A stretch of DNA of 55,759 bases from the NCBI GenBank assembly GCA_944332025.1, contig CALVJB010000004.1, positions 1-55,759 on the forward strand, in the 5' to 3' direction. The stretch's first letter is position 1; each line of letters opens with the position of its first letter. This DNA comes from an uncultured Bacilli bacterium. Lineage in GTDB: Bacteria; Bacillota_I; Bacilli_A; RF39; UBA660. The notes under the pieces are model-generated. The model made no database searches and was not told where the DNA came from. It worked only from the letters and a program-made list of their open reading frames with translations. This document shows, one piece after another, positions 49,251-55,759 of the stretch. Position numbers and translations under genes: made by a program.

Positions 49251-49589
49251 TTAACGGAAGTTACAACATGAACCTTGGTCGATATTGCAGCATACATTTT
49301 CTTCACAACAAGTATATCTAGGGCAATAAGTATGCTTGAAAATGTGATGATTAACTATTCTTGTATGGATTGGACATACATGTGGAACTTGATGAACGAA
49401 GGTTCTATTTATTTGACGTTGTTGTACTGGTTCCATAATTGGAGAGCCTGTATTCATCATTCCCATATTTTGTCCCATACCCATAGTATTACTATTCATA
49501 TTGATATCAATATTCATATCTTGGTCAACAACATTGTTATTACCATCGATAGTAGAATCCATATCAATAGCTTGATTATTAAATAACAT
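49251..49589 (-). CDS. CotD-like spore coat protein
   Basis: VPHVCPIHTRIVNHH..KH.Y.P resembles the CotD His-rich core; Cys-rich tail; RBS gaggagg. Confidence 0.7.
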   Translation of the reverse strand: MLFNNQAIDMDSTIDGNNNVVDQDMNIDINMNSNTMGMGQNMGMMNTGSPIMEPVQQRQINRTFVHQVPHVCPIHTRIVNHHIFKHTYCPRYTCCEENVCCNIDQGSCCNFR

Positions 49590-54033: not shown

Positions 54034-55491
54034 TTATACATATGTGAAATCTGTTACTCCACTATTTGCAATAGTTGAATTAGGTATTGTCCAAGTATCT
54101 CGTGTTACTAATATTTCTGTTATGTTAGTCATACCATTAAACATTGTTCTATAATCTGTTACTTTTGAAGTATCAAAACTTCTTAAATCTAAACTTTTCA
54201 AATTACTACATCCTGCAAACATTTGTGACATAGTAGTAACGTTGGTAGTATCAAAATTACTTAAATCTAATTCTGTTAAACTCCGACAACTGTTAAACAT
54301 ACTAAACATACCTGTAACATTTAAAGTGTCAAACATACTCAAATCTAAAGATATTAATTTTATGCAACCATAAAACATCATGTTCATACTAGTAACATTT
54401 GATGTATTAAAATTTTCTCCAAATGTTATTTTTGTTAAACTCATTGGTGCAGAAGTTGCTGTATTAATAGAAAACATTGAACTCATATTAGTTACATTAG
54501 AAGTATCAAAACCACTTAAATCTAATTCTGTTAAACTAGTTGATCCTGTAAACATCATTATCATATTAGTGACTAAACTAGTATCTAAATAACTTAAATC
54601 AATTGATGTTAGATTAGAAAAACCAAAAAAATATTCACCCATATAATAATTAGCAATTATCTTATCTTGTGCACCTATTGTTACTTTATATGTTCCTGCA
54701 CCTGTTCCATCATCTTCGGCATAGGCAATAACACTTCCATTCTGTTTTTCTGATATATCCCAACTTTCTATTACTCCTTCTGGTATAACTGTATCTCCTT
54801 TTGTTACTATACTTGTTACTTTACTCTTATATTCTGATGAATGAAAATCTGCACTACCTGCTGTTCTCATCATTCTATCTTCCATTGATAAGCCATCTAA
54901 TCCATAGACATTTATTTGTATTGAAAAAGATAAATTTCCTCCATCACCTTGAGGATTATAATCTTCATCTACCCACATTCTTAGTCTATATCTATTACTT
55001 TCACTAGAATTCATACTACTTGTATATAAACTCATCTCTCCTGATGGCCTTCCTGTAAAACTATTTGATGTACTCTCTTCATTATAAGTCTCTGGTGTCA
55101 TTAATTCTTCTTCACCATCATCTGTTAATCTAGTTAGATATAACTTTATATTAGATCCGTCTATCTTCCTATCACTAGTTGTTACATCTTTTGCAGATAT
55201 CTCATAATTAATGTTTACATCTCCACTAATTTGACTACTTACTGTAAAGTCAAAGTACTCTCCTTCTGTTAATCTTACTTTCCCTGTCGCGTCACGAGTT
55301 GGTAAAGCACCTGTTAAACTAATAGTATTATCAGACTCTTCATATGTCATAGTAATAGATCCTGTTGTTATTGAGTTTACTTTAGTTCCTTCTCCTGTAA
55401 ATCTAAAAGCAGCGTATGATACTCCTATTAAAGCTATTACCATTAATAGTATTAATCCTATTATTACTATCTCTTTCTTTGTCTTTTCCAT
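54034..55491 (-). CDS. Exported surface protein with about six 25-aa DUF285/BspA-type repeats
   Basis: Signal peptide ending GVSYAAF; repeats of LDLSxFDTSNVTxMxxMF. Confidence 0.88.
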   Translation of the reverse strand: MEKTKKEIVIIGLILLMVIALIGVSYAAFRFTGEGTKVNSITTGSITMTYEESDNTISLTGALPTRDATGKVRLTEGEYFDFTVSSQISGDVNINYEISAKDVTTSDRKIDGSNIKLYLTRLTDDGEEELMTPETYNEESTSNSFTGRPSGEMSLYTSSMNSSESNRYRLRMWVDEDYNPQGDGGNLSFSIQINVYGLDGLSMEDRMMRTAGSADFHSSEYKSKVTSIVTKGDTVIPEGVIESWDISEKQNGSVIAYAEDDGTGAGTYKVTIGAQDKIIANYYMGEYFFGFSNLTSIDLSYLDTSLVTNMIMMFTGSTSLTELDLSGFDTSNVTNMSSMFSINTATSAPMSLTKITFGENFNTSNVTSMNMMFYGCIKLISLDLSMFDTLNVTGMFSMFNSCRSLTELDLSNFDTTNVTTMSQMFAGCSNLKSLDLRSFDTSKVTDYRTMFNGMTNITEILVTRDTWTIPNSTIANSGVTDFTYV

Positions 55492-55525
55492 CTTTTACTC
55501 CTCCTCAATTTATTTTTCTCACACT

Positions 55526-55556
55526 AAAAAGAACAGAATATCTCTATCCTGCTCTT
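55526..55556 (-). terminator. Intrinsic terminator in the leader of the surface-protein gene
   Basis: AAGAGCAGGAUA-GAGA-UAUUCUGUUCUU followed by UUU; both mismatches are G-U pairs on the minus strand only. Confidence 0.75.
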
Positions 55557-55592
55557 ATATCATAATGAAAGAAAGTAATTATATTACTTAAT

Positions 55593-55673
55593 CTACAAGT
55601 AAAACTGCCTTTTATGCTTAAGGATAAAAACTGCCCCCCCCCAGGTAACATTTAGTAAACGCATTCTTGTCAT
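55593..55673 (-). CDS. Putative leader peptide containing a G9 tract
   Basis: MTRMRLLNVTWGGAVFILKHKRQFYL; weak RBS caggt. Confidence 0.5.
   Translation of the reverse strand: MTRMRLLNVTWGGAVFILKHKRQFYL
55634..55642. repeat. C9/G9 homopolymer, candidate slipped-strand tract
   Basis: Longest G/C run noticed in this AT-rich window. Confidence 0.85.
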
Positions 55674-55676
55674 ATT

Positions 55677-55731
55677 TTTACCTGTAGATTGACGAATTAA
55701 TTTACCCCAAAAATGACGAATTATTTTACCC
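55677..55731. repeat. Direct repeats with a 24-bp period, carrying TGACGAA boxes
   Basis: tgacgaattaatttaccc (55690) and tgacgaattattttaccc (55714); tttacc at 55677, 55701 and 55725. Confidence 0.8.
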
Positions 55732-55759
55732 TGGAAATTAAAATTAGTCATATCTACTT

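Follow-up and report, generated by a model that had tools for sequence, protein, structure and literature searches.

How can a homopolymeric tract switch a surface-protein gene when it lies outside the gene? The question is raised by the end of a 55,759-nt stretch of DNA from an uncultured Bacilli bacterium (GTDB lineage Bacillota_I; Bacilli_A; RF39; UBA660; assembly GCA_944332025.1, contig CALVJB010000004.1; the whole stretch is called the window below), where a run of nine G residues sits in a short ORF of its own ahead of a surface gene. Poly-G tracts of the Campylobacter and Neisseria phasomes lie inside coding regions, and the Mycoplasma vlp genes are the textbook case of homopolymer phase variation in a promoter spacer. 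In Mycoplasma agalactiae, as far as the text of one published account goes, polyA and polyG tracts act inside lipoprotein genes, and DUF285 'drp' genes form a variable surface repertoire (PMC2824730). The coding-region tracts of Campylobacter, Neisseria and M. agalactiae have in common with the window locus and its relatives G runs of 8–13 residues and a frame-dependent ON/OFF state, here a predicted one, of surface proteins. Those tracts, however, truncate the structural protein itself, whereas at the window locus the gene is untouched and the reading frame would act through a leader and a terminator. The analysis described here, which compares the locus with its homologs and with a characterized switch of Streptococcus gallolyticus, suggests that it is probably a phase-variable leader-peptide attenuator, as had been proposed in an earlier reading made from the sequence alone (the sequence-only reading).

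The window ends where contig C4 of a 1.59-Mb, 101-contig genome (27.2% GC) ends, and there the minus strand, which carries all of the elements considered here, runs into a short leader ORF (Table 1). The regulated gene encodes a PARCEL/DUF285 surface protein: an N-terminal membrane-spanning segment is combined with PARCEL/DUF285 BspA-type repeats, which are matched by Pfam PF03382 (110.7 bits; cutoff 25) and, over five stretches, by TIGR02167 (159.1 bits; cutoff 30). The two direct repeats inside the leader ORF are found in long leaders (as GKIIRQFW/GKLIRQS) and are missing from short-leader paralogues; they could serve as a protein-binding site.

Table 1. Elements of the leader region and the surface gene at the end of the window.
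Feature	Position	Strand	Remarks
Leader ORF as assembled (G9, 52 aa, short frame predicted OFF)	55593..55751	-	ATG 55751-55749, TAG 55595-55593
Two 17-nt direct repeats, 24 nt apart, inside leader ORF	55690..55730	-	encode GKIIRH.. and GKLIRQ..
Internal in-frame Met codon	55671..55673	-	78 nt (26 codons) downstream of ATG 55751
G9 tract, proposed slipped-strand switch	55634..55642	-	read directly; genome count of G/C runs
TAA ending the leader if the tract is G10	55618..55620	-	tract-length change made in silico
Conserved pyrimidine box, including TTCTTT 55573-55568	55565..55578	-	reads T-F-F-H in the long frame
TAG ending the long (G8/G11) leader frame	55544..55546	-	top of hairpin 5′ arm and loop
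Intrinsic-terminator-like hairpin (12 bp, GAGA loop, T5 run)	55526..55556	-	stem 55556-55529, T-run to 55526
Shine-Dalgarno sequence of the surface gene, GAGGAGGAG	55498..55506	-	read directly
Surface protein, 485 aa, regulated gene	54034..55491	-	ATG 55491; PARCEL/DUF285 profiles

Leader translation starts further upstream than the sequence-only reading had placed it. The ATG at 55673, which that reading took for the start, is an internal methionine codon, and the ORF begins in the same frame at ATG 55751, a start assigned by homology to leaders with a Shine-Dalgarno (SD) sequence at nine paralogues. The leader SD of the window copy lies beyond the contig end; it is visible as a purine-rich sequence 8 nt upstream of the ATG where contigs from two public runs extend past position 55758. 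The locus has, as does the pil1 locus discussed below, a simple-sequence repeat within a short ORF that is equipped with an SD and an ATG. In other respects the frames were as first described: the G9 tract lies at the proposed coordinates inside a short minus-strand ORF, which as assembled ends at a TAG 36 nt ahead of the terminator stem; with G10 the leader ends still earlier, at a TAA 61 nt ahead of the stem; and with G8 or G11 the frame stays open as far as ...AGA GCA GGA TAG, where the TAG falls within the hairpin and the peptide made in silico ends ...ITFFHYDIRAG. The frame set by tract length places the leader stop, in other words, either far upstream of the hairpin or inside it. No leader frame fuses to the surface protein, and the window copy, whose G9 tract specifies a short frame, is predicted to be OFF as assembled.

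A contig from public sequencing runs gave the same tract. All 20 runs listed for the locus are assembled Logan contigs. Four of these runs were aligned and yielded only short unitigs, which are uninformative on tract heterogeneity or expression; no indel was found at 55634-55642, and one 82-nt contig spans the tract as G9, while an RNA-library run contributed one 168-nt contig, which lies inside the surface gene. Among the runs listed, chicken-gut metagenomes are the main holders of the locus.

The 12-bp GAGA-loop terminator proposed from the sequence was confirmed as a hairpin followed by a T-run. A consensus scan returned one terminator-like site at the locus against 0.0 in shuffles, and the hairpin (ΔG −13.5 kcal/mol, z = −4.19) was matched in folding by 0 of 200 shuffles. 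It is AU-rich, with G-C at 3 of its 12 pairs, and is followed by five T's; the terminator of the window copy may be leaky with such a stem and so short a T-run. Across homologous loci, the hairpin behaves as a conserved RNA structure that is kept through compensatory changes. When 22 diverse loci were aligned, RNAalifold returned this helix alone; 7 of the 12 pairs had changes on both sides, 88.5% of alignment cells paired (46–70% with the partners slid), and the covariation score of 0.321 (vs. 0.10–0.16) was reached by 0 of 500 shuffles. A finder that itself demands a run of at least four T's located the hairpin with its T-run in 42 of the 44 leader-type loci whose downstream sequence was long enough; C3, with T3 only, was missed, and L025 ends too soon. 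Over this region no Rfam family reached its gathering threshold (best scores 23.9 bits against 64 and 17 against 58.7, E = 0.35 and 0.83).

A switch of this layout has been described in a Firmicute. According to that study (Danne et al., 2014; PMC3894217), GCAGA repeats in an SD-led leader ORF at the S. gallolyticus pil1 locus shift the frame of the leader, so that a stop 28–49 nt before a stem-loop and T6 terminator gives low expression, and a stop 4 bp before the hairpin or inside it gives high expression. Deletion of one stem arm raised transcription 11-fold, destruction of the leader ATG and SD locked expression low, stop-codon mutants also behaved as the model predicts, and the layout recurs at another pilus locus, pil3 (PMC3894217). 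As they are described there, pil1 and pil3 share with the window locus a repeat in an SD-led leader ORF, a terminator ahead of a surface-structure gene, and a Firmicute host, and the stop distances are comparable (22–69 nt upstream or inside the hairpin in the window family; 28–49 nt upstream or at/inside the hairpin in pil1). The systems differ in repeat unit, which is the 5-nt GCAGA (13–26 copies) in pil1 and pil3 and a G run in the window family; in ON frames, which are two of three in pil1 and a predicted one of three here; and in copies, with two pilus operons in S. gallolyticus and about ten copies per genome before PARCEL/DUF285 genes, genus-wide, in the window lineage. A TTNTTT box 10–11 nt before the stem is a feature of the window family, and the pil1 switch has been tested experimentally, whereas the window family is known from sequence alone. 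The principle is known from S. gallolyticus; what is new in form is that the tract is a homopolymer, that a single frame of the three is predicted to be ON, that the cassette exists in many copies, and that a pause-like box is conserved. Searches of the literature found no leader/terminator phase switch besides the one in S. gallolyticus, nothing on phase variation in the window lineage, and no report of a leader of this kind ahead of DUF285 genes.

This precedent adds function to what the anatomy of the locus, its conservation, and the covariation of its hairpin establish by observation: because pil1 behaves in this way, tract hypermutation, termination, and translation-dependent read-through would be expected in the window family. 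It also bears on a caveat attached to the original proposal, that coupling of ribosome and RNA polymerase is weak in B. subtilis; that objection is weakened in principle by a working switch in a Firmicute, which says nothing of coupling in the window lineage itself. In the attenuation model, a promoter located off the contig end (extended −10 in the paralogues) would drive the SD-led leader, and slipped-strand changes in the length of the poly-G tract would shift ribosomes among three frames. In two of these (G9 and G10 at the window copy), ribosomes would stop early, the hairpin and U-run would form, most transcripts would end there, and expression of the PARCEL gene would be low (OFF). In the G8/G11 frame, the ribosome would be taken over the pyrimidine box to the stop at the top of the hairpin; by occupying the 5′ arm, it would block pairing and allow the polymerase to read through (ON). 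With about ten cassettes per genome, the surface proteins made by any one cell would then be a random subset. In pyrBI-type attenuation of E. coli, a ribosome close behind the polymerase likewise blocks a terminator, with nucleotide-sensitive pausing as the input. At pyrBI and at the window locus alike, the leader ORF reaches into the terminator hairpin, and read-through needs, or here would need, a nearby translating ribosome; the pyrBI input is physiological, whereas the window switch is proposed to be a heritable change of frame.

The tract is one of a set in its genome. G/C runs of at least 7 number 11, and those of at least 9 number 10 (seven G9, two G10, one G11), compared with about 0.05 runs of at least 9 expected by arithmetic from base composition in 1.59 Mb at 27.2% GC; all ten sit in paralogous leaders ahead of related genes. 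The copies are laid out as extended −10 promoter, strong SD and ATG, leader ORF, tract, variable spacer, pyrimidine box, hairpin and T-run, and gene SD, and the leader peptide of the paralogues usually ends ..LQYVTWGG at the tract. Exactly one frame continues to the hairpin in 10 of 10 paralogues, and its stop lies inside the hairpin in nine, C16 overshooting it. C3, C64, and C81 are now in the long frame; the window copy is not. The cassette is found ahead of 10 of about 17 close family genes, and an eleventh copy (C43) is truncated where its contig ends. Leader cassettes are often located at contig ends (the window at 55759, G000 C41, C43, G044:C1:7-14); a repeated cassette probably breaks short-read assemblies, so that copy numbers are lower bounds. 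Six close family genes (on contigs C49, C30, C2, C12, where this applies to one copy, C11, and C28) are without the poly-G leader, and most of these share another upstream block, an inverted repeat AGGATA..TATCCT before the SD, which may be a different control module.

Beyond this genome, the geometry that lay at the heart of the sequence-only reading, a leader stop within the terminator stem, is conserved at homologous loci (40 of 42). Of 24 other genomes in the genus, 20 have a match to the leader DNA, as do 2 of 16 outside it, both weakly, and G runs of 8 or longer occur in 52 of 53 genus genomes. When the first-listed G8+ run of each genome was taken (n = 30), a sample not picked by leader similarity, the full cassette was present in 23, and one more (L025) was cut by a contig end. 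The 42 loci that were scored, with leader starts chosen by SD energy, comprise 9 from the source genome and 33 from other species (30+ species); left out were C3, L025 (cut), L029, L042, and L050 (second leader type), and L036, L048, and L049 (other contexts). The leader SD duplex has an energy of −10 to −14 kcal/mol at most loci. All 42 loci have a frame open to the hairpin, and in 41 of them only a single frame is open that far; the long-frame stop lies 6–19 nt into the hairpin in 40 loci, and the other two frames end 22–69 nt upstream of the stem in 41, the exception being L046. Exceptions to the overall geometry are C16, with a long frame that extends 93 nt beyond the hairpin, L023, with one that extends 12 nt beyond, and the atypical L046.

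The weight of these counts depends on ancestry, as the loci are homologous and not independent. In dinucleotide shuffles of the spacers, the mean probability of reaching the hairpin is about 0.51 and that of a stop inside it about 0.37. Loci were grouped by complete linkage, since single linkage chained all of them together. A 70% identity threshold gives 12 clusters, 10 of which follow the rule in full, and the chance of this, combined over clusters, is about 10^-3.2; with only 6 clusters it is 10^-1.3. The homology of all loci and the weakness of the statistics under strict clustering would suit a reading in which the upstream block is a recombination cassette, the poly-G tract is a mere mutational hot spot, and the open frame has been inherited by descent, as would the finding that leaders are mosaics of shared modules and that many lie at contig ends. 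We nevertheless consider it very improbable. Although the spacers vary in length (29–86 nt) and differ by many indels and substitutions, the long frame is never closed in 42 loci, and the other two frames close within 3–45 nt in 41 of 42; the hairpin has been maintained by compensatory changes; and G runs of such length are otherwise missing from the genome. A long frame kept open despite such varied spacers would seem to be a stronger argument than the cluster statistics.

Tract lengths differ among homologous leaders. Among 43 loci the tract is G7 in two, G8 in five, G9 in 26, G10 in seven, and G11 in three, and 12 of the 43 are now in the long frame, near one in three. Homopolymer errors would blur these ON/OFF calls wherever a genome was assembled from long reads, as some may have been. 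Evidence for hypermutability is indirect, as no pairs of loci with matching flanks and different tract length were found. The species representatives and two near relatives (Ffh 98% and 96% identical) had no close orthologue of the window surface locus, and a metagenome scan for that locus with the tract as a gap gave 0 matches; a scan with the family-wide pattern gave one, L169, in which an interrupted tract is fixed in the long frame. At three other loci (L012, L134, and L135), a G-to-A change has created a TGA directly ahead of the G6-7 that is left, so that the leader ends before the G's; TGA does serve as a stop codon here, at the end of 59 of 607 long ORFs, and the genes are nonetheless intact (454–538 aa). 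These interrupted tracts look like naturally locked alleles, OFF in the three and ON in L169, and the intact genes allow some leader-independent expression. At a further locus, L133 (G062:C76), the leader module is tandemly duplicated, with G9 and G10 tracts 119 nt apart ahead of one gene.

The position of the promoter bears on whether leader and gene share a transcript. At the C9 paralogue, the promoter scan identified TTGAAA-17-TAATAT with an upstream TG ahead of the leader SD; a dominant promoter after the terminator, which would speak against attenuation, was checked for at this one paralogue, and the promoter was upstream of the leader SD. In short-type loci, including the window copy, the gene ATG lies 23–42 nt past the hairpin, a gap judged too short to hold a promoter. 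A promoter-spacer switch at the window locus was rejected, as there is no −10 element after the tract and the paralogue promoter lies upstream of the leader SD. Long-type paralogues (C3, C16, C41, C81, and C99) have about 100 extra nt from hairpin to gene (e.g., L007:1690-1850), an insert that holds a perfect palindrome with 11-bp arms, GTCAAAAATAT..ATATTTTTGAC, and a weak promoter-like string. The insert might act as an operator or as a second promoter, although no second promoter after the hairpin was flagged in long-type loci by the promoter scan.

A promoter at or after the hairpin would make the leader a separate small gene with its own terminator and a phase-variable peptide, and the surface gene would be transcribed independently of it. 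The extra nucleotides and the palindrome of the long-type loci are compatible with this arrangement, as are the intact genes at interrupted-tract loci and two elements seen by eye, TG-n-TATAAG at about 55562-55554, before or overlapping the stem at the window copy, and TTGATA-17-TAATTT in long-type loci. Neither promoter-like element passes the promoter scan, however, and TG-n-TATAAG is missing from other hairpin types. The length of the leader N-terminus is free, with 22–109 nt before the tract, which makes a functional peptide unlikely, and an independent leader gene gives no reason for keeping the stop in the hairpin. The chance that the leader is such a gene appears very small.

The attenuation model requires that a ribosome be near the polymerase when the hairpin is made, and the pyrimidine box may be of relevance here. 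A TTNTTT sequence ends 6–16 nt before the stem (mostly 10–11) in 38 of 42 loci vs. 17% of shuffled spacers, a motif of limited weight since T-rich hexamers are common at 27% GC; in the window copy, TTCTTT ends 11 nt before the stem. According to the text of a published account, NusG of B. subtilis and M. tuberculosis pauses polymerase at TTNTTT (non-template −11 to −6), and NusG pauses can synchronize transcription with translation (PMC9963633). Two roles are conceivable for the box, that of a pause motif of the NusG type and that of an anti-SD mimic. Judging from the motif, a pause at the box would hold the polymerase about 5 nt short of the 5′ arm and would let the leader ribosome catch up.

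If the box is an anti-SD mimic, the tract could switch mainly translation: the box would hide the gene SD, only long-frame ribosomes would melt the helix, and coupling would be unneeded. Minimum free energy (MFE) folds do pair the box with the SD of the downstream gene in most loci, including long-type loci, in which the 100-nt insert has to be bridged, and about 10 of 38 loci have a strong duplex (−12 to −18 kcal/mol, z −1.7 to −4.0). The window locus, on the other hand, has a weak duplex (−8.5 kcal/mol, z = −0.1), and GAGAAA takes the place of the SD as partner of the box in its MFE fold. Box-SD pairs have similar scores whether cognate (−10.5) or non-cognate (−10.1), so that there is no clear covariation, and a box-SD helix was not supported by this test as a general feature of the family; RNAalifold returned the hairpin alone. 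The T-run after every hairpin scored, which the finder requires (T4), points to termination. A switch acting mainly on translation is unlikely, and translational unmasking is to be weighed as a rival or as an added layer to attenuation.

A more far-reaching proposal builds on attenuation. A reusable cassette (extended −10 promoter, SD, poly-G leader, TTNTTT box, and terminator) would have been copied before at least 10 PARCEL genes per genome throughout the genus, so that cells show a random third of the repertoire; the box would be a NusG pause that solves the coupling problem and would often also mask the gene SD, so that transcription and translation are both gated. As a whole, we put this forward tentatively, as a possibility with the odds against it.

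Poly-G tracts are widespread in the order. G9 runs occur in 79 of the 151 genomes sampled, over 48 of 86 genera. Among 30 loci from other genera, about 16, as judged by eye, have the run flanked by a −35 resembling TTGACA and a −10 resembling TATACT or TATAAT, and 3 show the leader/terminator layout. In such spacers of the sister genera the tract lies between −35 and −10 (TTGACA..Gn..TATACT), whereas that of the window genus lies 31–109 nt inside a translated ORF downstream of the promoter. The sister-genus loci (L139-L168) have G runs of 9–13 in promoter spacers, often ahead of genes with a prepilin-type N-terminus (..KGFTLIELLAVIVIL..). These promoter spacers indicate that the same family does use poly-G as a switch; by its sequence patterns, the family appears to use poly-G in at least two ways, and the window genus favours the leader form. 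The nearest named records besides uncultured Bacilli MAGs are 'Clostridium sp. CAG:710' (86% Ffh identity) and 'CAG:302' (80%), both of which we take to belong to the RF39 group.

If the attenuator is real, it would be the second known leader-peptide/terminator phase switch, the first to use a homopolymer tract, and the first to exist as a multi-copy cassette, and it would explain surface variation in a gut lineage that is uncultured and has a genome of 1–1.7 Mb. It would also provide a sequence rule for metagenomes, in which a tract length that puts the leader stop inside the hairpin predicts that the gene is ON, and natural test cases for ribosome-polymerase coupling and NusG pausing beyond the model Firmicutes. 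For annotation, it would serve as a warning that the intergenic poly-G runs of the window genus are not assembly errors.

Several loci of the genus depart from the main type. A second type of poly-G leader (L029, L042, and L050) has the same ..LQYVT-G(8-12) start, followed by a GA-rich/CT-rich hairpin without a T-run and then by a non-PARCEL gene starting MSNSVLKDKD... At L036, G9 stands right before the ATG of a small XRE/YozG-like HTH gene, in an SD-like place. The G9 of L048 is placed early in an ORF that takes a tract of G11 to be complete (about 120 aa). To judge from these two loci, poly-G switches may reach beyond surface genes. Elsewhere in the window, at 49251-49589 on the minus strand, is a 112-aa Cys/His-rich ORF that we presume, as an impression only, to resemble CotD-type spore-coat proteins, which would be odd for a reduced-genome lineage.
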